Sequence record: LC494302.1
Origin: Escherichia phage SP27
Reading direction: 5' to 3' (one strand)
Length of the DNA stretch: 64,000 bases
Part shown: one piece after another, positions 1 through 9,864 of the stretch
Layout of the letters: the number at the start of each line of letters is the position of its first letter
Numbering within the stretch: the stretch's first letter is position 1
Notes under the pieces: generated by a model
Database searches by the model: none
Seen by the model: the letters and a program-made list of their open reading frames with translations, nothing else
What the model was told of the DNA's origin: nothing
Program-made: the position numbers and the translations under genes

Positions 1-94
1 CAGGTACAATATTTCCGTACTTAACCATTCTTGTAAAAGGTAACATAAATCCCTCCTTATTCATTATATCATATTTACCCCATAAAGAAAACCC

Positions 95-123
95 TTGACA
101 TCCTTTCAGTACTGGTGTACTAT
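95..123 (+). promoter_or_regulatory. sigma70-like promoter upstream of family A array
   Basis: TTGACA 95-100, 17 bp spacer, TACTAT 118-123; AAGGAG RBS before ATG 149. Confidence 0.45.
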
Positions 124-148
124 AGAAGGAATATAAGGAGAACTACAC

Positions 149-376
149 ATGACAAATACTCTTAAGTACTACCTCAATACTCTAAATGAACTAGAGTACG
201 GGGAATTTCTCGCGGATAGTTCGTGGCTAATTGAGCTAAAAAATTATAATAGTCCAGGATGCACCCTTATGATGAACAATGCAATTGATACCCTCATTGT
301 GAGTATTTTACACAGCAACATCTGCGGGGATAGCAATAAACAATTATCAAAAATCTTAGTACTGCTATCTATATGA
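149..376 (+). CDS. hypothetical small protein, paralog family A (divergent first member)
   Basis: ORF with RBS; N-term KYYLNTL and NNAIDTL core resemble later copies. Confidence 0.55.
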   Translation: MTNTLKYYLNTLNELEYGEFLADSSWLIELKNYNSPGCTLMMNNAIDTLIVSILHSNICGDSNKQLSKILVLLSI

Positions 377-576
377 ATATCGAACAGTACTACATCGATG
401 CACTACCAACAAAAGGTCTACGTGAAAGCCTACTGCATACACAAACTAATTTCAAACACCTCAAACGTAGCCCTAAACTCCTGAACTCGTACAGGAATAA
501 TAACATAAGAAATGCTTTACAAGGGGTAGAATGTATGCAATACTATTACATCCTTACCCTATTAATTGAGTACTAA
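373..576 (+). CDS. hypothetical small protein, paralog family A
   Basis: ATGA overlap with upstream gene; C-term LTLLIEY tail. Confidence 0.6.
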   Translation: MNIEQYYIDALPTKGLRESLLHTQTNFKHLKRSPKLLNSYRNNNIRNALQGVECMQYYYILTLLIEY

Positions 577-577
577 T

Positions 578-787
578 ATGAATACTGAACATAAAGAATT
601 CTACACCAAATACCTTAGCAACGAAGAACAATTGTTTCTAAGGAGTGTATCACCTGTAAGTACCAATACTCAATTCGGTAGAGATTGCTTTAATAATTGT
701 ATACGTAGTACTCTAGAAGCAATCGAATGCAATAACAAAAATATTATGTACTCAGGTTTAATAGGACTAATATATTTCTATGAATAA
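578..787 (+). CDS. hypothetical small protein, paralog family A
   Basis: start moved to ATG 578 (MNTEHKEFY) by paralog alignment; FNNCIRSTLEA core. Confidence 0.6.
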   Translation: MNTEHKEFYTKYLSNEEQLFLRSVSPVSTNTQFGRDCFNNCIRSTLEAIECNNKNIMYSGLIGLIYFYE

Positions 788-974
788 TCATAAAGATTTC
801 TATTGTAGTAAACTACCCAAACAAGAACAGCTATCATTCTCTTTAGCACCACCTATGAGAAAGGATAATCTGTATTATAATTACGATTTCAGGATGGTGA
901 CACGTTATGCAATAGAACATCAGTTCCCTGAAACTAAGTACCGCTCTATCCTGAACCTCATCTTTAAGTTCTAA
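780..974 (+). CDS. hypothetical small protein, paralog family A
   Basis: MNNHKDFY N-terminus; overlaps neighbour. Confidence 0.6.
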   Translation: MNNHKDFYCSKLPKQEQLSFSLAPPMRKDNLYYNYDFRMVTRYAIEHQFPETKYRSILNLIFKF

Positions 975-1026
975 AAGGTACACCAGGGACCGAGTACTTT
1001 AATATAGTAAGGCTAATTACATTATA

Positions 1027-1212
1027 ATGAATCATATAAGCTACTACTACCAACAACTATCCGACAGAGACAAGTACAGTCACAACTCCCATGTGTGGTA
1101 CTACAAACGCGGCAGTATAAGAGACAAACAACATTACTTCTGTATTTCTATTAAAGAAGCACTGACAACTAAGTACACGTACCGAGCAGTACTTAAACTT
1201 ATTGAAATGTAA
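1027..1212 (+). CDS. hypothetical small protein, paralog family A (VLKLI subgroup)
   Basis: C-term YTYRAVLKLIEM shared with next 4 genes. Confidence 0.6.
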   Translation: MNHISYYYQQLSDRDKYSHNSHVWYYKRGSIRDKQHYFCISIKEALTTKYTYRAVLKLIEM

Positions 1213-1222
1213 AGAGAATACT

Positions 1223-1405
1223 ATGAACATTGAATTGTACTTAAGTAAATTACAGCCTGGCGATAGATTCATCTACAATAAGTTCGAATTCAACTACAAG
1301 AACGGGAGCAACAAATATCGTCGAGGATACCTATATACAAGCACAAGAGATGCACAAAACGAAAAGTACACATACAGAGAAGTACTTAAACTAATCTCTA
1401 TTTGA
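1223..1405 (+). CDS. hypothetical small protein, paralog family A (VLKLI subgroup)
   Basis: track ORF uses TTG at 1202; ATG 1223 (MNIELY) preferred; C-term YTYREVLKLISI. Confidence 0.55.
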   Translation: MNIELYLSKLQPGDRFIYNKFEFNYKNGSNKYRRGYLYTSTRDAQNEKYTYREVLKLISI

Positions 1406-1413
1406 GGTAATAT

Positions 1414-1599
1414 ATGAATACATTTGAGTACTATACCAATAAACTATCTATGCCTGAAAGATCTCATCTCTATGTGTGGAGAAATGCGTATAAAAGCGGC
1501 AATAAACTTATACAAAGAAATTCCCTTACAGTGTGTACAAATTTAATTAAAGCAGAGTACCGCACATATATTGAAGTACTCAAACTGATAGCAATATAA
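1414..1599 (+). CDS. hypothetical small protein, paralog family A (VLKLI subgroup)
   Basis: MNTFEYY N-term; C-term IEVLKLIAI. Confidence 0.6.
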   Translation: MNTFEYYTNKLSMPERSHLYVWRNAYKSGNKLIQRNSLTVCTNLIKAEYRTYIEVLKLIAI

Positions 1600-1607
1600 G
1601 GTACTCT

Positions 1608-1787
1608 ATGCAAGAATTCTATATCTATAACCTCCAGCACAAAGATAGATACAACTATAATAAATTCCAAAGGTACTACACAGTCGGGAACAAAAGAGAT
1701 AAAAAACGTTATCTACTCTCGTGTACAGTAGAAGCACAAAACGAAAAGTACACGTACAGAGAAGTACTTAAACTAATCTCAATCTAA
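1608..1787 (+). CDS. hypothetical small protein, paralog family A (59 aa, below ORF-track cutoff)
   Basis: read by hand: MQEFYIYNLQ...EKYTYREVLKLISI; fills gap between neighbours. Confidence 0.55.
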   Translation: MQEFYIYNLQHKDRYNYNKFQRYYTVGNKRDKKRYLLSCTVEAQNEKYTYREVLKLISI

Positions 1788-1794
1788 GGTAGAC

Positions 1795-1983
1795 ATGAAC
1801 ACTTTTGAGTACTACTTCAATAAACTAAACCACATAGAACAAAGTATGCACAACTCATTTATTCAGCACCATCAATCATCTGCACATGGAATTAAAAATA
1901 TATCGATTGAGATTATCACTACCCGTGTACAGTCATCTGAACGTTATATGTATATTGATGTACTGAAACTCATCTCTATGTAA
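1795..1983 (+). CDS. hypothetical small protein, paralog family A (VLKLI subgroup)
   Basis: MNTFEYYFNKL; C-term YMYIDVLKLISM. Confidence 0.6.
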   Translation: MNTFEYYFNKLNHIEQSMHNSFIQHHQSSAHGIKNISIEIITTRVQSSERYMYIDVLKLISM

Positions 1984-1991
1984 GGAATAAT

Positions 1992-2171
1992 ATGCAAGAA
2001 TACTATATAGAACACATAAGCATTAAAGACCGTTTCATGTACGACACCTTCGTGAAGTACTACAACCTGGCAACTAACAGTACTAAAAATATTAATCTCA
2101 ATAGCTGCATTCATCACGCACTAACAAAAGATAATCCCTTCAGGGAAATCCTCGCACTAGCATCTGTATAA
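1992..2171 (+). CDS. hypothetical small protein, paralog family A (59 aa, below ORF-track cutoff)
   Basis: read by hand: MQEYYIEHIS...NSCIHHALTK...; fills gap. Confidence 0.5.
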   Translation: MQEYYIEHISIKDRFMYDTFVKYYNLATNSTKNINLNSCIHHALTKDNPFREILALASV

Positions 2172-2181
2172 AGGAAACCAA

Positions 2182-2841
2182 ATGAAACTTAATGCACACA
2201 GCAAACAATACCTTAAGCACTTTAAGTACCTCAACAGTATTCAAGCAGAATCTATTACATCTGCATATACGTATCACCCAAATGTACTAAAGAAACGAAA
2301 TAAAAAGAAAAAATCCAGAAATGTTCTCGTATCTAAGAACCTCAAATCGTACTTGAAGAAAAATAATATAGCTCTTGCTTTTATTAATATCTATAATACT
2401 GATTTAAAAGTATTGAGTACTAATACCAGCACAAAAGCACTAAAGAATGCATCTATCTATATACACATGGATAATATCCCGTGCACTATAATTCTATCTT
2501 TCGGGAATGTATACTTCTTCGGGAATTGTAATAGCACCCATGATATCAGTACTGCACAATTCCAAATCGGCGATATGTACTGCATGGGTTCAGAAAAAAT
2601 ACACGATAACATGCACTTCTTCCAAAAGCAACGTACTAACGAAACTGATACAGTACTGCAATTCCTCAAAGAATTACAAGGCAAAGAATTATCAGAAGAA
2701 GATCTATTCATGTACAGTACTGTAATCGATAATCCAGAACTCTATAAAAACGCGTACAATCTAACAAAACATGTACAGGAACTTATCAGTACTGATAAGA
2801 AATTTCATCACCTCATTACGTATATTTCAAACTATGTATAA
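2182..2841 (+). CDS. hypothetical protein, family C-like member embedded in family A array
   Basis: 219 aa; contains EEDLFMYSTVID resembling the family C motif. Confidence 0.55.
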   Translation: MKLNAHSKQYLKHFKYLNSIQAESITSAYTYHPNVLKKRNKKKKSRNVLVSKNLKSYLKKNNIALAFINIYNTDLKVLSTNTSTKALKNASIYIHMDNIPCTIILSFGNVYFFGNCNSTHDISTAQFQIGDMYCMGSEKIHDNMHFFQKQRTNETDTVLQFLKELQGKELSEEDLFMYSTVIDNPELYKNAYNLTKHVQELISTDKKFHHLITYISNYV

Positions 2842-3016
2842 AGAATACTACAAAGATAAAATCCCAATGCATCTACAACACCATATACCAAACGTTGCAT
2901 TGGGTATCAAAGATCACGCAAAGATAATGTTCCAACAATGTACTAAGTACACGCTCATATACGATGATAATCCATATATGCTGTACTACGTAGTAATGCT
3001 AACATTCAGGTACTAA
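2834..3016 (+). CDS. hypothetical small protein, paralog family A
   Basis: start placed at ATG 2834 (MYKEYY); C-term VVMLTFRY. Confidence 0.55.
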   Translation: MYKEYYKDKIPMHLQHHIPNVALGIKDHAKIMFQQCTKYTLIYDDNPYMLYYVVMLTFRY

Positions 3017-3017
3017 T

Positions 3018-3197
3018 ATGAATACTTATAAAGAATTCTACCTCTCGTACCTTAATTCCGATATAGTAACATCCAATACATTCAGTACTAAAATTATCTA
3101 TAATGAATTAATGAAAGAATGTATTAAAGGTGCTATTAACCCTAAAGATACGTATGACTTGTACTATGCAGTACTAACCCTTGTTTTCACGAAATAA
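3018..3197 (+). CDS. hypothetical small protein, paralog family A (59 aa, below ORF-track cutoff)
   Basis: read by hand: MNTYKEFYLSYL...; fills gap. Confidence 0.5.
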   Translation: MNTYKEFYLSYLNSDIVTSNTFSTKIIYNELMKECIKGAINPKDTYDLYYAVLTLVFTK

Positions 3198-3205
3198 CAC
3201 ATAAT

Positions 3206-3397
3206 ATGAATAACCACAAAGAATACTACATAGAGAAACTCCCAATGTATCTCCAACACCTTGTACCAACAGAACCATTGGGTATAGAAAAAAACTACGA
3301 AAAAGACTACTTCATTCAGTGCACTAAATCCTCGATATATATTGAAGACTATAATCGAGTACTGTATCACATCCTTTTACTAATATATAGGTACTAA
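3206..3397 (+). CDS. hypothetical small protein, paralog family A
   Basis: MNNHKEYYIEKLP; C-term ILLLIYRY. Confidence 0.6.
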   Translation: MNNHKEYYIEKLPMYLQHLVPTEPLGIEKNYEKDYFIQCTKSSIYIEDYNRVLYHILLLIYRY

Positions 3398-3398
3398 T

Positions 3399-3581
3399 AT
3401 GCACAAAGAATACTACACACAATTTCTCCCCAGCATTTTTGAACACTACGCCAGATACAAAGTCCCTATGGATAACGATTTGGCAGTACTGGGATTCAAT
3501 AACTGCATAGAACGAAGTATAGAAAATAGTAGTAGTTATGACCAGCTATATAACACTATCCTACTTATATTCAGGTACTAA
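3399..3581 (+). CDS. hypothetical small protein, paralog family A
   Basis: MHKEYYTQFLP; FNNCIERSIEN; ILLIFRY. Confidence 0.6.
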   Translation: MHKEYYTQFLPSIFEHYARYKVPMDNDLAVLGFNNCIERSIENSSSYDQLYNTILLIFRY

Positions 3582-3582
3582 C

Positions 3583-3771
3583 ATGCATAAAGAATACTAC
3601 ACAAAATATTTCCCAATGTACCTCAGAACTAATCTATTAGATAAACCTCGCGGTATCAATGCACAAAATGATAAAGTGTATTTTACTATGTGCACTAAAG
3701 CATGTATACTAGATTTTGACAGCTACCATCGAGTACTGTATCATACCCTGTACCTAGCTTTCGTATTCTAA
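3583..3771 (+). CDS. hypothetical small protein, paralog family A
   Basis: start at ATG 3583 (MHKEYYTKYFP), 1 nt after upstream stop as at other junctions. Confidence 0.6.
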   Translation: MHKEYYTKYFPMYLRTNLLDKPRGINAQNDKVYFTMCTKACILDFDSYHRVLYHTLYLAFVF

Positions 3772-3780
3772 GAGAACAAT

Positions 3781-3966
3781 ATGCATAAAGAATTCTACTT
3801 AAGCCATCTGGATCTAAACTCCCAAATGCTTATACCACTAATCCCAATAGATATCAAGGATAAGAAAAATACCGAACAATTCATTTACCATACACAGTGT
3901 GCGATCACCCCAAATTACATTCCATATGAATTGTACTACATTATCGCCCTAATATATAGGTACTAA
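3781..3966 (+). CDS. hypothetical small protein, paralog family A
   Basis: MHKEFYLSHL; C-term IIALIYRY. Confidence 0.6.
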   Translation: MHKEFYLSHLDLNSQMLIPLIPIDIKDKKNTEQFIYHTQCAITPNYIPYELYYIIALIYRY

Positions 3967-3967
3967 T

Positions 3968-4153
3968 ATGCATAGAGAATACTACACACAATTTGTTAAA
4001 GGGAACTACAAACATGCCGTACCCAGAACCCCTTTAAATTCTCATGACCCAAGTACTATATTCTTGTTTAATGACGCAATACGTACAGTACTCAATACTA
4101 AAGATGAAGATGTGCAGTACGTATTCTTACTATTACTTATATACAGACACTAA
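3968..4153 (+). CDS. hypothetical small protein, paralog family A
   Basis: MHREYYTQF; FNDAIRTVLN; LLLLIYRH. Confidence 0.6.
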   Translation: MHREYYTQFVKGNYKHAVPRTPLNSHDPSTIFLFNDAIRTVLNTKDEDVQYVFLLLLIYRH

Positions 4154-4158
4154 CTAAT

Positions 4159-4341
4159 ATGAATAAAGAACATAAAGAATTCTATATACGAAAACTAACA
4201 TTCGTCCCCGTAAGAATATATAAAGAATGCGACCCAAGATTATACCTATGGCACTTCAATGAGTGCATAAAAGATTCTATATACCATAAGAACTATAAAG
4301 AACAATTGTGCTCAGTACTAACACTAGTACTATCATATTAA
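4159..4341 (+). CDS. hypothetical small protein, paralog family A
   Basis: MNKEHKEFYIRKL; FNECIKDSIYH. Confidence 0.6.
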   Translation: MNKEHKEFYIRKLTFVPVRIYKECDPRLYLWHFNECIKDSIYHKNYKEQLCSVLTLVLSY

Positions 4342-4356
4342 TTAATAGAGAATACT

Positions 4357-4548
4357 ATGTATAAAAACTTCTATATAAGTAAACTAAAAGAAAATGAACA
4401 AGTATGGATTAGATCTATAATTCCACTGGCATTTAATAGATATGCATTTAACAGATGTACCGAGATTGCTATAGACCCTTATAATATTAAAGAGAATGTA
4501 CAGTATAATCAGTACTACTATATCTTAATGCTTATATATAGAAAGTAA
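4357..4548 (+). CDS. hypothetical small protein, paralog family A
   Basis: MYKNFYISKL; FNRCTEIAID; ILMLIYRK. Confidence 0.6.
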   Translation: MYKNFYISKLKENEQVWIRSIIPLAFNRYAFNRCTEIAIDPYNIKENVQYNQYYYILMLIYRK

Positions 4549-5185
4549 TTAAACACATAGAGACAGGGGAAGCTCCTAGTGAACAACCTTTATGTACAGG
4601 CGAATTGTTAAAATTCAGCCTGGACAAATGCGATCACTAGGATTCTCCCCAGGCTAAACCCCGTAATCATAGGTAGTCATAAGTAATCATATATAAACAT
4701 TTATATGAGCACCGTAGAATCACAGAATGATTATATATGATTCAGTACTGATTAGTATAGACAAGAATGCTCAAGAATGCACGGGAAGGATTCAGAATGA
4801 TTCAGTACTGATATGCCACTAAGTAGGCAGAGGAAGTCTGCCGTACTTTGTAGTTTCCAAGCTCCTTTTCCATTTTGCAAATTACATCAAATGTAATCAA
4901 AAGTAATCACGCAATGATTAGTACTGAATTATTACTTTCACCTTAATTTCAATTACCCCTTTACCCTTCGGGGTAAAATTCAATTACCCCTTGAGGCTCC
5001 AGCAAAAAGTTGGTTAGTACTCCATCCTAAATCTGGATCGTAAAAAATTTGGAGTACCTATGAAATAAAAGTTGGATCTTCGAAAGTTGAAATTTACGTT
5101 GGGACATATAGGATTTGTGGGATATAATGAGTTTTGTAGCGATACAGATTATACGATTTCAGTACTGAATAATGAAAGAAAGCTA

Positions 5186-5213
5186 TTGACATTATGATTC
5201 AGTACTGTATAAT
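5186..5213 (+). promoter_or_regulatory. orphan sigma70-like promoter with no downstream ORF
   Basis: TTGACA 5186-5191, 16 bp spacer containing AGTACTG, TATAAT 5208-5213. Confidence 0.5.
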
Positions 5214-5549
5214 GTTCTACATAGGGTGATGAGTTGCTGCGAACAATTCATTTACTCTACCTCCTGTCGTGAGACAGTACAGAAAAGATAGTTCCTCCTG
5301 TGGTGGTACATCTTTTTGAACCTCATATGAAAATCGTAATAACAGTACTGATATTAACAGAATGGTGTCAGTACTGATTTTAATCTAAAGCATTATGCCA
5401 CCAGCACAAGTTGGTGGATTCCCTCTAACAGTATTCAGTACTACATGATAGTCTTCATCCTCCTAGGGTAACATAGTGAGGGCTATGATGGCAGTACTGA
5501 ATACTCCCTTTCAAAAGATAGATCTATGGTATAGTACTGACGGATTTTG

Positions 5550-5745
5550 GGTGTAGTTACCCTGGATGGATTTTGGACGTAGATATGTCTAGCCCTCCAG
5601 AAGTCTGGAAGTAAAGATGGCTATCCATCTAGACGGCTAAACGGATAGATTTCTGGATGGCTGGATGGCTAGACGTTTGGACGGCTAAACGGCTAGATGG
5701 TTACACGTCTGGAAGTATAGACGGCTAAATCAAAATTTTATTTTG
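5550..5745. repeat. cluster of short direct repeats (iteron-like)
   Basis: GACGGCTAAA x3, TCTGGAAGTA x2, several GGATGG/CCATCC and CTAGACG motifs within about 200 bp, locally GC-richer. Confidence 0.5.
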
Positions 5746-5950
5746 TTTTTTCCAATAGTTCCCCTACCGCGTGGGGATAGTTTCCCCGCAGTATCTGGAG
5801 TTAGATTTTTCTGAATCTGGAATCATTATCTTATAAACTGGGGGCAATGTCAACGGCCTGGACGGATATTTTTAAAAATTTTTTCAGTACTGAATTTTGG
5901 GCGTAACTATGCACCCGGTGGGCTTGAGTCTTTCTCGACTTGATGGAACT

Positions 5951-5978
5951 ATTATACAGTACTGAAAAAATAAAGCAA
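5951..5978 (-). promoter_or_regulatory. minus-strand sigma70-like promoter
   Basis: reverse complement reads TTGCTT-16-TATAAT; transcribes leftward through a GCACCCGGTGGG element. Confidence 0.4.
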
Positions 5979-6166
5979 TACCCTGGAAGCAAAAAAGTTT
6001 TAATTAATTTGCTTGCTATCCTGGGCCGGACTATGGTACTATATTTCAGTACTGAGAAAGTGCGTTTACCTGCTAGGGTGCGGGAGTGTATCCTTTTTTT
6101 ATATCTTGAATTTTGGGCGTAATTCCGCACCCTCTGGGGTTTCCGCTTTCTCGCGTCTATGTAGTA

Positions 6167-6194
6167 ATTATACGCTTTTTCAGGATCAAGTCAA
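6167..6194 (-). promoter_or_regulatory. minus-strand sigma70-like promoter
   Basis: reverse complement reads TTGACT-16-GCGTATAAT. Confidence 0.45.
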
Positions 6195-6349
6195 TACCTA
6201 AAAACAAAATAATTGAAAATAATTTAACGCGTTTAAACGGCCCGTAACGCCCTGGAATGATTAGAATGGTGCAAATGTATAGCTTAGGTGTATTAATGCG
6301 TTAGAATGCGTCTGAGGCCGTTTTATGGGGTGTAGTAGTGATTTGGTTG

Positions 6350-6440
6350 ATTCAGTACTGAATAATAGTACTCCTATATAGAAAGATAGTTCCCCTGGAT
6401 GGTTGCAGTACTGAATAATAGTACTCCTATATAGAAAGAA
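6350..6440. repeat. direct repeat of about 34 bp, two copies
   Basis: CAGTACTGAATAATAGTACTCCTATATAGAAAGA occurs twice about 55 bp apart. Confidence 0.7.
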
Positions 6441-6470
6441 AACTATTTTAAAAGTATTTGTAGAAAGTAC

Positions 6471-6530
6471 TTGCACCGTACTGATAAAAGCGTATAATGT
6501 TTTACATCGAGAGCGGGAACACTTCCCGCT
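6471..6530 (+). promoter_or_regulatory. class I early promoter plus 5' stem-loop cassette
   Basis: TTGCAC 6471-6476, TATAAT 6493-6498, GTTTTACATC; hairpin AGCGGGAAcacTTCCCGCT 6512-6530. Confidence 0.65.
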
Positions 6531-6553
6531 ACACATTAAGAGAGATTAAAACG

Positions 6554-6916
6554 ATGGCGACTCAAATCAATAAAATCATGCTTAACCTGGTAAACTTCCG
6601 CGATGAGATGAAAGGTCTTCCGGCTGAAACTGTAAAAATTCACATTGCAGCTTATCGGGAACTTATTGCAATGTTGCCGCTTAAGCGTGAACAATACGCC
6701 GCTACTTTGATGCTGGATTCAATGATCCATATAATGATCTCAAATGATTTAACGATGGTTTATCAGTACATGGGCGAAAATTTCGCGGTGTGTAGTAAGC
6801 CAGTACCAGGGATGGCAACAACTGAGGAATTGCACGGCTTAAACTTAAAACAAGATGCATGGGATAATATGCCTCGTTTCCTGGTATGGGCTGACAGTGG
6901 CAAAATTTACAAATAA
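6554..6916 (+). CDS. hypothetical protein
   Basis: start at ATG 6554 (MATQINK) downstream of cassette; 120 aa. Confidence 0.6.
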   Translation: MATQINKIMLNLVNFRDEMKGLPAETVKIHIAAYRELIAMLPLKREQYAATLMLDSMIHIMISNDLTMVYQYMGENFAVCSKPVPGMATTEELHGLNLKQDAWDNMPRFLVWADSGKIYK

Positions 6917-6930
6917 GTTTAATAAAGTAC

Positions 6931-6989
6931 TTGCAAACTATGTTTAATGGCGTATAATGTTTTACATCAGGTGGGGAATAGTTCCCCAC
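6931..6989 (+). promoter_or_regulatory. class I early promoter plus 5' stem-loop cassette
   Basis: AAAGTACTTGCAA -35, GCGTATAAT -10 at 6953-6958; hairpin GTGGGGAAtagTTCCCCAC 6971-6989. Confidence 0.7.
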
Positions 6990-7008
6990 TATATAAGAGG
7001 ATTAAAAA

Positions 7009-7248
7009 ATGGCTAAATCAAAAATGTTCTTAGGTCACAAAAACAAAACTCATTGGAATGTAAGCCTGTGGATTAATAACGATGAGGGATTGTATCGGTT
7101 GGCCCTGGACTTTATTGCCGCCAATACTAATCGCAATGATGCGGCCCGTCATATGATGTTATTTTTAGAACAGACTGGACAAGATAAAACACCGGACGGA
7201 TTCAAATATAGCACTACTGCGATCCGTGCGGCGATGGTTGGAATGTAA
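7009..7248 (+). CDS. hypothetical protein, paralog of 9050..9289
   Basis: shares HKNKTHWNVSLWINN and TPDGFKYSTTAIRAAMVGM with the 9050 gene. Confidence 0.65.
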   Translation: MAKSKMFLGHKNKTHWNVSLWINNDEGLYRLALDFIAANTNRNDAARHMMLFLEQTGQDKTPDGFKYSTTAIRAAMVGM

Positions 7249-7334
7249 TAGAATTTATTTAAAGTACTATCATTTTTTTGCGATAGTACTTTATAATAGT
7301 GTTTTATTCATACACCAACGATAAGGGCAACAGC

Positions 7335-7601
7335 ATGAATATTAAGTATTTTGCGACGCGTGAACAAGCTCGGATCGCCGCACGCCAGGACGGGGCAACG
7401 TTTAAAGATATGGGAGCGGGATCGGCAAGTGGTGAACGTTGGGCCATTGTAAAGCGTAGTACGGCCAGATCTTTACAGTACTGGTTAGCGGCCTTAAAAA
7501 GTCCCGATAGTGTATCGCGTCGAGTGGTAGAAATAAAGCTCGACCGAAAGGGCAACCGCGTGACCGTGTACCGTACTAAAAAGATTGCAGTACTTGAATA
7601 A
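7335..7601 (+). CDS. hypothetical protein, paralog of 20376..20771
   Basis: shares FATREQARIAAR..GETFKDMG and DRKGNRVTVY; start at ATG 7335. Confidence 0.6.
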   Translation: MNIKYFATREQARIAARQDGATFKDMGAGSASGERWAIVKRSTARSLQYWLAALKSPDSVSRRVVEIKLDRKGNRVTVYRTKKIAVLE

Positions 7602-7608
7602 AAAGTAC

Positions 7609-7667
7609 TTGCAAACTATGTTTAATGGCGTATAATGTTTTACATCGAGAGCGGGAACACTTCCCGC
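7609..7667 (+). promoter_or_regulatory. class I early promoter plus 5' stem-loop cassette
   Basis: TTGCAA 7609-7614, TATAAT 7631-7636; hairpin GCGGGAAcacTTCCCGC 7651-7667. Confidence 0.7.
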
Positions 7668-7688
7668 CTATAACCTGGAGTAATAAAA

Positions 7689-7919
7689 ATGACTAATATG
7701 TATATGACTGAAGTTAAAACCGTAAAAGATACTACCACGAATAAAACTACTTACTTACAGCGGATCTGTGGTGTATGGCAACGTATCAGCAAATCAAAGT
7801 ACTTTAAATTAACATCATATGCAAATCGTTCGGATTCATTCAGTACTGAAATAAAAGGTAATAAAGTACACCAATACGGCACTTATTATTATTATAGCCT
7901 GGACGCGATTGCAGTATAA
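7689..7919 (+). CDS. hypothetical protein
   Basis: GGAG RBS; 76 aa. Confidence 0.55.
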   Translation: MTNMYMTEVKTVKDTTTNKTTYLQRICGVWQRISKSKYFKLTSYANRSDSFSTEIKGNKVHQYGTYYYYSLDAIAV

Positions 7920-7957
7920 GCAGTTTACAAATCTTTACAATTGCCGGTATTGACTTA

Positions 7958-7988
7958 TTTTGTCAGTACTGGCATAATGTATTCATTG
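7958..7988 (+). promoter_or_regulatory. class II promoter (TTGACT ... AGTACTGGCATAAT)
   Basis: ATTGACTtattttgtcAGTACTGGCATAAT; no ORF downstream; faces a minus-strand promoter. Confidence 0.45.
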
Positions 7989-8093
7989 GCAGATAAGCCG
8001 TAGCCCATAGGGTGCGGGAGTGTATCTATAGAAAAAGTAGTTTAGTATAGTTACAATTGTGCACCCGGTGGGTTAGCTGTTGTCATGGGGTAT

Positions 8094-8122
8094 ATTATGC
8101 CAGTACTTGATAATGCTGTCAA
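8094..8122 (-). promoter_or_regulatory. minus-strand class II promoter, convergent with the 7958 promoter
   Basis: reverse complement reads ATTGACAgcattatcaAGTACTGGCATAAT. Confidence 0.45.
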
Positions 8123-8168
8123 TACTTTTTTTTTAATATTCAGTACTGAAAACTATTTTTAAAAAGTA

Positions 8169-8196
8169 CTTGCAAACTATGTTTAAAGGCGTATAA
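8169..8196 (+). promoter_or_regulatory. class I early promoter
   Basis: AAAAGTACTTGCAAactatgtttaaaGGCGTATAATGTTTTACATC. Confidence 0.65.
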
Positions 8197-8205
8197 TGTT
8201 TTACA

Positions 8206-8277
8206 TCAGGACGGGGAACGAAATAAGTAACTTCCCGTTAAGTAGCCCAGGAGTAAGGCACACGAAAAACTCCCCTG
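8206..8277 (+). other. conserved structured RNA-like element, copy 1
   Basis: CAGG-ACGGGGAA...TTCCCGT...CTCCCCTG nested complementarity; near-identical copy at 19183-19251. Confidence 0.4.
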
Positions 8278-8287
8278 ATAAAATAGT

Positions 8288-8315
8288 TTGACAATTGTTT
8301 TTAAAAGCGTATAAT
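8288..8315 (+). promoter_or_regulatory. sigma70-like promoter
   Basis: TTGACA 8288-8293, 16 bp spacer, TATAAT 8310-8315. Confidence 0.6.
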
Positions 8316-8347
8316 ACTTACATCAACTACTGAATGAGGGTTACAAA

Positions 8348-8959
8348 ATGAAAACTATCACTACTACTACTTATGTTATGGCTTTTTCTGAATTGAACGC
8401 AGAACAACAAACGTCAGCTATCGAACTGGTTCGGGAACGTGAAAAAAACTTAAACGATGATTATTTTTCTGAAAGTGAAATTGAATACTATAAAGAAACA
8501 GTACTACCGGAATATGGCATTAATGACGCTGAAATACAATTCAGTGGCTTTTGGTCCCAGGGTGACGGTGCATCAATCAGTACTGACCACGTTGACGCAG
8601 TGAAGTTTTTACGCAAGGTAAGAGCATTAACTAAGTATCGCTCAATCCGTCACTTGCTGAATGAAGATGATTTGGCGATGAGTGTAAAGCGTTCGCACTC
8701 CCACTACTCGCATGAGAATACTGTAAGCGGGTACATTGAATCGGCTTACACTGATTTAACCGCAAAACAAGAAACGTTAGTTAATGAGCTTGAGGAACTA
8801 CTCACTGAAACTATTCGTGAATTATCCCGCAAGTTGTACCGTGATTTAGAGAATGCATATGAGGATCAATTCACTACTGAAAACATTACGGCACTGATTG
8901 AGGGTAACGAATATCAATTCAATGTTATTGATGGAGTAGTAGAATCAATCGAATATTAA
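8348..8959 (+). CDS. hypothetical acidic protein
   Basis: 203 aa; GAGGG RBS; no family recognised. Confidence 0.6.
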   Translation: MKTITTTTYVMAFSELNAEQQTSAIELVREREKNLNDDYFSESEIEYYKETVLPEYGINDAEIQFSGFWSQGDGASISTDHVDAVKFLRKVRALTKYRSIRHLLNEDDLAMSVKRSHSHYSHENTVSGYIESAYTDLTAKQETLVNELEELLTETIRELSRKLYRDLENAYEDQFTTENITALIEGNEYQFNVIDGVVESIEY

Positions 8960-9346: not shown

Positions 9347-9634
9347 ATGAGTAAAGTAATAAAGTACAATGTGTTAAGCAAATCATTGTCTATCAGTGAA
9401 TGCACCGATGGTTTTTGGATGTACGATGAAACGCGTGGCATGAATTTAGCTATGCGTGCAAAAACTGCTGAGGCGGCGTATATTCAAGCACTGGAATACT
9501 ACCAGGAACGTTTGAAGGAAGTAGAAGAAGATTATAAAAGCCTCAAAGCGAAAGTAGATCATTTCGTCGGTCAATTCGTGGAAGACAACGACGAGGACGG
9601 GCACTACTGCGACCGTTGCGGATCTTACAGTTAA
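9347..9634 (+). CDS. hypothetical protein
   Basis: 95 aa; C-terminal CDRCGSYS. Confidence 0.55.
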   Translation: MSKVIKYNVLSKSLSISECTDGFWMYDETRGMNLAMRAKTAEAAYIQALEYYQERLKEVEEDYKSLKAKVDHFVGQFVEDNDEDGHYCDRCGSYS

Positions 9635-9651
9635 GTACTAAGGATTATATA

Positions 9652-9864
9652 ATGAGTGATTTAATTGAACGTATCAAAGAGCTTGAAGAAAAAGAATTGC
9701 AGTTGATCGGGTTACGGAATAAAGTATTCCATGATTTAGGTGGCTTTATTAATGCCTGGGATAGTGGCGATCCTGATGCGTTACCTGCTAACCGCCAGGC
9801 GATGATCAATGATGTGCGTGGTGTCTTTGATTATGTTTTAAAAGTACTAGACACTAAGCAATAA
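9652..9864 (+). CDS. hypothetical protein
   Basis: start at ATG 9652 (MSDLIERIKELEEKE). Confidence 0.55.
   Translation: MSDLIERIKELEEKELQLIGLRNKVFHDLGGFINAWDSGDPDALPANRQAMINDVRGVFDYVLKVLDTKQ

Follow-up and report, generated by a model that had tools for sequence, protein, structure and literature searches.

Positions 5550–5745 of a 64,000-nucleotide stretch of Escherichia phage SP27 DNA (LC494302.1; this whole stretch is called the window throughout) hold a cluster of short direct repeats, and the question raised by this locus is which protein the repeats serve and for what purpose. A first-pass annotation had likened them to the iterons of a replication origin or to a packaging or regulatory protein-binding array. 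We describe them here as a single, strictly phased array of met boxes, the operator units of the host methionine repressor MetJ, situated near one end of the direct terminal repeat (DTR) of the virion DNA. Judging from the sequence, the array is probably destined for host MetJ and would act in cis as a nucleoprotein landmark or roadblock.

A strictly phased array of met boxes

The array comprises 18 contiguous 8-bp units between positions 5583 and 5726, these being the best limits as defined by matrix scores and periodicity, and all units keep a single register without any insertion or deletion. Self-identity at lags of 8, 16, 24, 32 and 40 nt amounted to 0.56–0.62, as compared with 0.26 ± 0.04 in shuffled sequences (z = 7.4–8.7), and none of 2000 dinucleotide shuffles matched the self-identity of the array at any lag. 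The units in register include AGATGGCT, AGACGGCT, AAACGGAT, GGATGGCT, AGACGTTT and ACACGTCT, which are degenerate versions of the consensus AGACGTCT.

The strict 8-bp order had been missed by the first-pass annotation, and the motifs that it listed separately turned out to be facets of one phased array. GACGGCTAAA indeed occurs three times (5632, 5680 and 5720), with no other copies in the window, and TCTGGAAGTA occurs twice (5604 and 5708). Of the further motifs named, GGATGG was found three times and CTAGACG twice, whereas CCATCC is absent from the region. The raised local GC content was reproduced (0.444 in 5550–5745 versus 0.364 and 0.396 in the flanks), as was the scarcity of open reading frames (ORFs), none of at least 30 amino acids being present on either strand over 5198–5830. 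The AT-rich tract said to follow the repeats also exists, and closes the array at 5727–5755 with 29 nt read from the sequence (AAATCAAAATTTTATTTTGTTTTTT). All of the aligned genera have a T-rich tract after the array, with a sequence that is kept only partly. Neither the array nor the tract is assigned to a strand.

The unit consensus AGACGTCT is the met box. Each 8-bp box is bound by one MetJ homodimer, and there is no repression unless two or more boxes adjoin one another (Augustus and Spicer, 2011; PMC3228920). For scoring, we used the half-metbox weight matrix of the same study, which was derived from 832 half-boxes, together with its thresholds, i.e. at least a quarter of the consensus score for a box and at least the consensus score, 12.58 bits, for a site (PMC3228920). 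Sixteen of the 18 units exceeded the single-box threshold. Fourteen of them are consecutive and form an unstranded core at 5615–5726, in which every box reaches at least 3.15 bits (observed range 3.8–10.7) and the scores add up to 100.2 bits (mean 7.16 per box), to be compared with the site threshold of 12.58; the two other good boxes lie in register outside the core, at 5583 and 5599. In the rest of the window, one marginal two-box site was detected. As a control, the same script was run on the metJBLF locus of E. coli K-12 (7 kb), where it returned the metJ/metB operator (four boxes, 31.2 bits) and the metF operator (four boxes, 24.9 bits) and no other sites. Box AAACGGAT is common to the phage array and the metF operator.

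Altogether, 1.05% of all 8-mers lie above the box threshold. As period-8 microsatellites in IMG/VR can pass the matrix by chance, a null model was built in which the bases were relabelled independently in each column of the 14-box array and all eight registers were considered. Three of 200,000 trials reached the observed mean, and in none did all 14 boxes pass; the array is not a generic period-8 repeat. The base frequencies of 120 phage boxes correlated with the host matrix at r = 0.90 (0.83–1.0 at the individual positions, with r = 0.64 at position 6), and the secondary preferences were likewise those of the host matrix, namely A over G at position 1, G over A at position 2 and C over T at position 4.

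The likeness to the met operators of E. coli (metA, metB/J, metC, metE/R, metF, metK and metNIQ) thus covers the 8-bp unit, the consensus and the secondary preferences, and it extends to the head-to-tail arrangement of the boxes, which meet at a T-to-A junction, and to the score per box (7.2 bits here versus 6.2–7.8 for metF and metB/J). The array differs from these operators in its 14–18 boxes, and up to 28–34 in other phages, versus four in both operators scored, natural met operators having two to five. It also differs in lying off the methionine promoters, in the terminal repeat of a virulent phage, and in having G in half of the boxes at position 6. The element is a met-box array but not a classical met operator, because no met gene is adjacent and no promoter of a methionine gene is overlapped.

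Two further identities of the repeats were considered. A CsrA-sponge RNA, for which GGA motifs would speak, was dropped, as only roughly half of the units have a GGA and the met-box matrix accommodates them all. Tandem TrpR sites, with CTAG every 8 bp, were rejected by eye, CTAG being found at about 4 of 13 box junctions.

Location in the terminal repeat and recurrence in other phages

The window belongs to an Asteriusvirus, i.e. a PBECO4/121Q-like jumbo coliphage, and the region is 90–97% identical to PBECO4, 121Q, G17, phAPEC6 and fEgEco12. For fEgEco12, direct terminal repeats of 20,993 bp have been determined by PhageTerm and restriction digests (PMC13070987). The records of fEgEco12 and CRJP21 both start at the base matching window position 4822 and end at the base matching 25750, which delimits a DTR of 20,929 bp on the plus strand (4822–25750). 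Since the DTR boundaries map to these two positions, window positions 1–4821 are the right-hand end of the unique region, the assembly having been collapsed or circularised. The array is embedded in an unstranded, ORF-free leader at 4549–6496, a gene-free gap of ∼1.9 kb which is also annotated in relatives and which extends across the left physical end of the virion DNA (4822), so that the 1.7 kb from 4822 onwards constitute the leader of the repeat. With the DTR at 4822–25750, the array is therefore located inside the left terminus, 762–905 bp from the physical end, and each virion DNA carries two copies of it.

The eight nearest flanking ORFs (3968–8959) correspond to PHROGs of unknown function, and their only Pfam matches were to two unrelated families of unknown function. 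Neither a Rep-like or DNA-binding domain nor a met-related gene adjoining the array was found when these ORFs were searched against Pfam and PHROGs. Consensus sites for DnaA, LexA, Fur, Cra, FadR and CRP were absent from the 1.7 kb leader.

This context bears on the iteron reading of the first-pass annotation, in which the repeats would be initiator sites of a replication origin and the AT-rich tract its unwinding element. Cumulative GC skew, calculated from the left terminus of a complete relative (97% identical), had its global minimum at 219 and its maximum at 328,381. An inflection, the lack of which was to count against an origin, is therefore present; it lies 219 bp inward of the left terminus, at a distance of ∼0.6 kb from the array. 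Moreover, the 29-nt AT-rich tract abuts the array, and the arrays of T5-like phages adjoin DnaA boxes. The inflection is, however, placed at the physical genome end and not at the array: within the window, the skew changes sign between 4549 and 4822, where the gene block also changes. The skew is positive over most of the genome, the last 24 kb of the complete relative having a GC skew of about −0.19, and this negative terminal block consists partly of minus-strand genes. At the terminus itself, gene orientation does not explain the flip, because the genes in 1–4548 run the same way as the positive-skew genes of the terminal repeat. Window positions 1–4548, chiefly 2771–4548 (and ∼24 kb upstream in relatives), are occupied by a tight run of plus-strand genes of ∼60 amino acids with a GC skew of −0.2, at least the last three of which (3968–4548) are paralogues of phrog_11711.

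Iterons are ∼17–22 bp long, spaced by the helical repeat and accompanied by an adjacent initiator gene, with DnaA and IHF sites being usual. What the array has in common with the iterons of P1 oriR, lambda ori and pSC101 is that direct repeats are clustered in non-coding DNA, that an AT-rich tract adjoins them and that the GC skew has an inflection not far away. In contrast, its units are packed contiguously with a period of 8 bp and without helical phasing, there is no DnaA box (TTWTNCACA) in 4822–6497 and no initiator-like gene among the nearest flanking ORFs, and the units match the operator of a host repressor. The anatomy of the site thus gives the iteron interpretation no support, and an origin at this place is kept only as a highly improbable rival.

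The array is a singular feature of the phage genome. In EC22.5-2 (a complete relative of 351,992 bp), one large array of 14 boxes was detected together with eight two-box sites, a number at chance level since shuffles gave 5–17 such small sites. BLAST revealed nothing comparable in 5426 complete E. coli genomes and no similar array in 72,556 plasmids. Direct BLAST of the array for met operators in the 5426 E. coli genomes was discarded as an approach, the operators being too short, and yielded one chance match.

Among the Asteriusvirus genomes the arrays vary by insertion or deletion of whole boxes, with 16 units in G17, 18 in the window and 19 in fEgEco12. The other Rak2-like genera share less than 30% average nucleotide identity with fEgEco12 (PMC13070987). 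Nevertheless, arrays of 12–16 units with conserved flanks were found at the same place in Mimasvirus (CBB, GAP32 and XbC2) and Eneladusvirus (Serratia phage BF and Yersinia phage fHe-Yen9-04). Although 23 of 120 nt are different between the arrays of CBB and BF, 12 of 15 boxes still pass the threshold, versus 6.3 ± 1.5 under random substitution (P = 0.0003), with a summed score of 99 versus the 18 ± 14.5 expected. Because the substitutions between CBB and BF preserve the met-box scores, it is the fit to the MetJ matrix that is under purifying selection.

Outside Asteriusvirus, arrays of 9–34 boxes were found not only in the other Rak2-like genera but also in T5-like Demerecviridae of Vibrio, Aeromonas and Providencia and in phiKT-like podophages. 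BLAST with the array, combined with the matrix, revealed 15 boxes in Vibrio phage Pontus, nine in Vibrio phage pVp-1, 28 (221 bits) in Aeromonas phage AhSzq-1 and nine, of 9.8 bits each, in Providencia phage PR1, all of them T5-like. Among the Autographiviridae, PGT2 has nine boxes at nt 38–109 of its record (BLAST and matrix) and phiKT has nine in its IMG/VR copy (BLAST match and IMG/VR scan). The longest array, 34 consecutive boxes with 272 bits at 4513–4784 of IMGVR_UViG_3300033696_000004, is built from a 32-bp higher-order repeat, and the contig (119,931 bp) has the size of a T5-like genome. Six-box IUPAC scans of IMG/VR and of GTDB genomes added only a few true arrays; most of the matches were single-unit microsatellites, e.g. 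AAATGTAT in metagenome-assembled genomes of giant viruses and in Bacteroidota, and were rejected.

In all phages with a known boundary, the terminal repeat includes the array, at a distance of no more than 0.9 kb from one of the two boundaries. This applies to the window, to CBB, with an array at 685–804 and an annotated terminal repeat of 22,456 bp, to PR1, with an array 770–841 bp from the inner boundary of a 10,461 bp repeat, and to Vibrio phage Chester (MN966732), in which the boundary of the 8006 bp repeat falls at the array edge. The positions for XbC2 (648–775), BF (673–800) and PGT2 (38–109) are counted from the record start rather than from established termini. In Chester, the array makes up the first ∼107 nt of the record, and a nick-like GCGCAGGAGGG motif as well as GTGCAAAT repeats are found just outside the repeat. 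PGT2 carries a microsatellite-like CTAT/CTATC run (CTATCTATCTATCTATCTATCC) at 290–350, ∼200 bp past the array and just upstream of the first gene.

Candidate binding proteins and a possible role at the terminal-repeat boundary

MetJ homologues are confined to Enterobacterales, Pasteurellales, Vibrionales, Aeromonadales and Alteromonadales (PMC3228920). Among the 85–95 matching records, all labelled hosts belong to MetJ-bearing orders, with the single exception of XbC2. As for the window, its closest relatives, with an identity of 92–97%, infect E. coli and Salmonella, from which its host was deduced, and the metJ gene of E. coli K-12 was retrieved. A tblastn search with E. coli MetJ revealed no phage-encoded MetJ in 50,697 phage records and none in the window, and no ORF or protein adjacent to the array is common to the phage families. 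Since the hosts bear MetJ, the phages encode no homologue of it and no adjacent gene is shared, a common host factor appears to be the economical explanation.

If the arrays were instead bound by a phage protein, for instance a small terminase subunit at a pac-like site, an end-binding protein or an early regulator, their likeness to met boxes would be a resemblance only. Such a protein would suit the location, which in every family is near a boundary of the terminal repeat and in Chester coincides with it, as well as the larger cis module suggested by conserved flanking motifs and a hairpin (see below) and the systematic departure of position 6 from host boxes. However, the same 8-bp specificity would have been needed separately in three unrelated families which share no array-adjacent gene, and neither the secondary base preferences, which follow the host MetJ matrix, nor the labelled hosts, which fit the MetJ-bearing orders with one exception, nor the failure to find a phage MetJ homologue in the 50,697 records would be expected. 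We regard a phage protein as an improbable binder.

With MetJ as the binding protein, each 8-bp box would take one dimer, at least two adjacent boxes being required. Neighbouring MetJ dimers bind cooperatively, and S-adenosylmethionine (SAM) is the co-repressor. From this established biochemistry we infer that ∼14–18 dimers would load as a continuous filament over ∼110–145 bp once the DNA is in the cytoplasm, and that occupancy of the array would track the host SAM level. At the terminal-repeat boundary, the filament could then serve in cis as a nucleoprotein landmark or roadblock, which is the least certain step. Candidate processes are staged genome entry, end capping, terminase and terminal-repeat processing or packaging, and blocking of transcription toward the genome end. 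The first-pass suggestion of a regulatory or packaging protein-binding array is retained in part: the idea that direct repeats in non-coding DNA form an array for protein binding is supported, as is its regulatory reading, and a packaging or terminus-related role is plausible because the array is always near a terminal-repeat boundary.

General precedents for such a role are host IHF at lambda cosB, where a DNA-binding protein of the host assists packaging, and the lacO/tetO arrays, in which repressor-coated DNA blocks polymerases; both are analogies of mechanism only. A likeness also exists to T7, whose SRL and SRR short-repeat arrays adjoin the terminal repeat of an exact-ended phage and whose leftward host promoter A0 is aimed at the genome end. 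The T7 SRL repeats were rejected as homologues, given their unit CCTAAAG, a spacing of ∼13 bp and no met-box run.

The closest comparison is provided by T5. Turned round, in the direction used for the G17 record, the jumbo genome has a terminal repeat similar to the one in T5: small early genes read toward the terminus, as does the dmp–A1 block of T5, and a repeat-rich non-coding region is located at the inner boundary; the T5 repeat also has rightward ORFs. In the T5-like phages, a LexA-box palindrome, DnaA boxes, the met-box array, a conserved CCTGCGC motif and GTGCAAATCCGAC repeats follow one another in this order, the CCTGCGC motif marking the 7.9% nick site in T5. Their array region is the homologue of T5 Repeat Region 3, the holder of the injection stop signal (iss), and paired DnaA boxes and a LexA-box-like palindrome are present in T5, PR1, Pontus, pVp-1 and AhSzq-1. 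Like the T5 iss region, the array region of the window is repeat-rich and non-coding and lies 0.5–0.9 kb inside one boundary of a long terminal repeat with small early genes; like Repeat Region 3, the leader is non-coding and starts at the terminal-repeat boundary, and it is at this place that the T5-like relatives have the array. Unlike Repeat Region 3, the jumbo-phage leader has no LexA-box palindrome and no paired DnaA boxes (IRC/IRD inverted repeats), and the polarity of the array relative to the boundary is reversed.

T5 itself fills the slot with Fur-box-like DRC and palindrome repeats instead of met boxes. In its iss (AY587007, 9468–9640), the DRC and palindrome E–I repeats match the Fur box at 14–15 of 19 positions, and the region looks like a cluster of host repressor sites. 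The iss also contains a perfect LexA box (palindrome D) in addition to DnaA boxes, of which only the latter were noted in this region by Davison (2020). In PR1 (record ∼9486–9700), exact Cra (TGAATCGTTTCA) and FadR (CTGGTCAGACCTG) consensus sites were found beside the met boxes.

An alternative use of the same protein would be a MetJ decoy, in which the array titrates the repressor and thereby derepresses the host methionine/SAM regulon (metA, B, C, E, F, K and NIQ). The terminal-repeat location gives two arrays per virion DNA, i.e. ∼30 boxes per genome, multiplied by replication, and these may rival in order of magnitude the number of met boxes on the host chromosome, where there are few boxes per operator. 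A decoy would also be consistent with the free-standing position of the array, unlinked to a promoter, and with a box affinity that looks deliberately sub-maximal but cooperative. On the other hand, T5 destroys the host DNA and stops host transcription within minutes, as is established for T5 and assumed for its relatives, which would make derepression pointless, and T7-like PGT2 has just nine boxes before host shut-off. The conserved place beside the terminal-repeat boundary would be unnecessary for a decoy, and the Fur-box-like repeats in the T5 slot argue for some host protein but not for methionine control specifically. Titration is a serious rival for the jumbo phages but a poor fit to T5-like biology, and on balance we consider it unlikely; if it nevertheless applied, it would represent a DNA-level phage route to reprogramming host methionine and SAM metabolism. 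A boundary landmark or roadblock is the more likely of the two, and it is favoured over metabolic manipulation because the arrays obey a position rule at terminal-repeat boundaries, because T5 fills the slot with sites resembling those of another host repressor, and because LexA, DnaA, Cra and FadR sites neighbour the array in T5-like phages.

Several points weigh against a MetJ-bound landmark. Position 6 of the phage boxes is split between G (0.50) and T (0.49), whereas host boxes have T at 0.87, and each box therefore combines one excellent with one mediocre half-site. No methionine gene has its promoter at the array, from which the closest consensus promoters are ∼90 and ∼400 bp distant, and the GC-skew minimum described above, not far from the array, leaves some probability to an origin. 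The Mimasvirus XbC2 (OP292654), with its 16-unit array at 648–775, is labelled as a phage of Xanthomonas vesicatoria, and the Xanthomonadales have no MetJ, which implies either an atypical host label or an array that has persisted in the absence of the repressor. In T5, no met boxes were found at the homologous place. The distance to the boundary varies from 0 to 0.9 kb, the cut site being 762 bp away in the window and 0–107 bp away in Chester, and the orientation of the array to the boundary differs between the Rak2-like and the T5-like phages. Finally, occupancy of the array by MetJ is something we infer from its sequence, and the boundary or roadblock role, which has no exact precedent, is the weakest part of the interpretation.

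A wider proposal, which we put forward only tentatively, is that three unrelated families of virulent phages with exact terminal repeats (Rak2-like jumbo myoviruses, T5-like siphoviruses of Vibrio, Aeromonas and Providencia, and phiKT-like podoviruses) have each fixed long MetJ operator arrays in these repeats and use MetJ together with SAM in the biology of their genome ends. If so, MetJ could be the protein component of a T5-type injection stop signal, or else an end cap or packaging landmark, and DNA entry or end processing would be coupled to the SAM status of the host. The T5-like iss would then be a landing pad for host repressor sites (LexA, DnaA, Fur, Cra, FadR and MetJ) rather than a DNA-structure signal.

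In the literature searched, and within its limits, no paper was found that links MetJ or met boxes with these phages, and papers on fEgEco12 and on large host-factor screens mention neither MetJ nor methionine nor the array region. Within this literature the finding is new: met-box arrays and host-factor sites on phage DNA are known as a kind, while the present form and context are unprecedented. MetJ and the met boxes are textbook material only as the two- to five-box operators of bacterial methionine genes. Arrays of 14–34 boxes, conserved in the terminal repeats of three virulent phage families and absent from plasmids and E. coli chromosomes, would amount to a new phage use of a host repressor. 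They would offer a testable handle on how the Rak2-like jumbo phages manage their 20 kb terminal repeats and on the make-up of the T5-like cis-acting injection stop signal, the nature of which has been unresolved for more than 50 years (Davison, 2020). The reagents exist, namely metJ deletion strains, purified MetJ, SAM and the phages G17, PBECO4 and phAPEC6.

Hairpin, promoters and other flanking elements

About 45 nt downstream of the array, a hairpin at 5769–5789 (plus strand) has been conserved in Asteriusvirus, Mimasvirus and Eneladusvirus and shows compensatory changes between the genera at three to four pairs: at the alignment pairs 245/271, 252/266, 253/265 and 254/264, both bases are replaced and pairing is retained. 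This suggests that a structure beside the array, in a transcript or in the DNA, is conserved.

Two promoter-like sequences, both of them consensus matches only, face the array. A perfect sigma-70 consensus promoter (TTGACA, 16 nt, TATAAT) with CAGTACTG in its spacer lies on the plus strand at 5186–5213, ∼400 bp upstream of the array and directed toward it. On the minus strand, a sigma-70-like promoter with 11 of 12 matches (5825–5853, ∼90 bp from the array) points to the left, so that transcription from it would cross the hairpin and the array on its way to the genome end. Since promoter-like sites are no commoner here than in shuffled sequences (nine in 4400–7000 versus 9.2, i.e. no enrichment), these assignments are weak.

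Hairpin and promoters could together speak for a role of the repeats as RNA, in a structured element or a terminator whose transcription starts at the promoters on either side. In addition, both strands of the region fold better than shuffles (z = −5.2 and −4.5). Quasi-palindromic met boxes, however, give strong folding of both strands at the DNA level anyway, and the whole-box insertions and deletions among close relatives would break the predicted long helices. The substitutions follow the MetJ matrix rather than base pairing, and an Rfam scan of 3500–8500 (E ≤ 10) gave matches at chance level only and hence no RNA family. We therefore attach next to no probability to an RNA element as the explanation of the array.

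On its other side, the array is immediately preceded by two plus-strand copies of the motif ATTTTGG(G/A)NGTA (5544 and 5570, together spanning 5544–5581), further copies of which occur at 5894 and 6110. A single copy, ATTTTGGGTGTA, was found at the same place in three of the four Mimasvirus and Eneladusvirus sequences aligned, namely in CBB, GAP32 and BF but not in XbC2. Similar ATTTTGGGG repeats, the 'DRA' repeats of T5, are present near the terminal-repeat boundary in T5-like phages.

The palindrome CAGTACTG occurs 65 times in the window, 11 of these copies being in 4803–6413, versus 0.65 expected, and 204 times in a 352 kb relative, where it is densest in the terminal repeat. Many copies are located between a TTGACA-like −35 and a TATAAT −10 sequence, others inside ORFs, and from this placement the palindrome looks like an operator or spacer element of early promoters.

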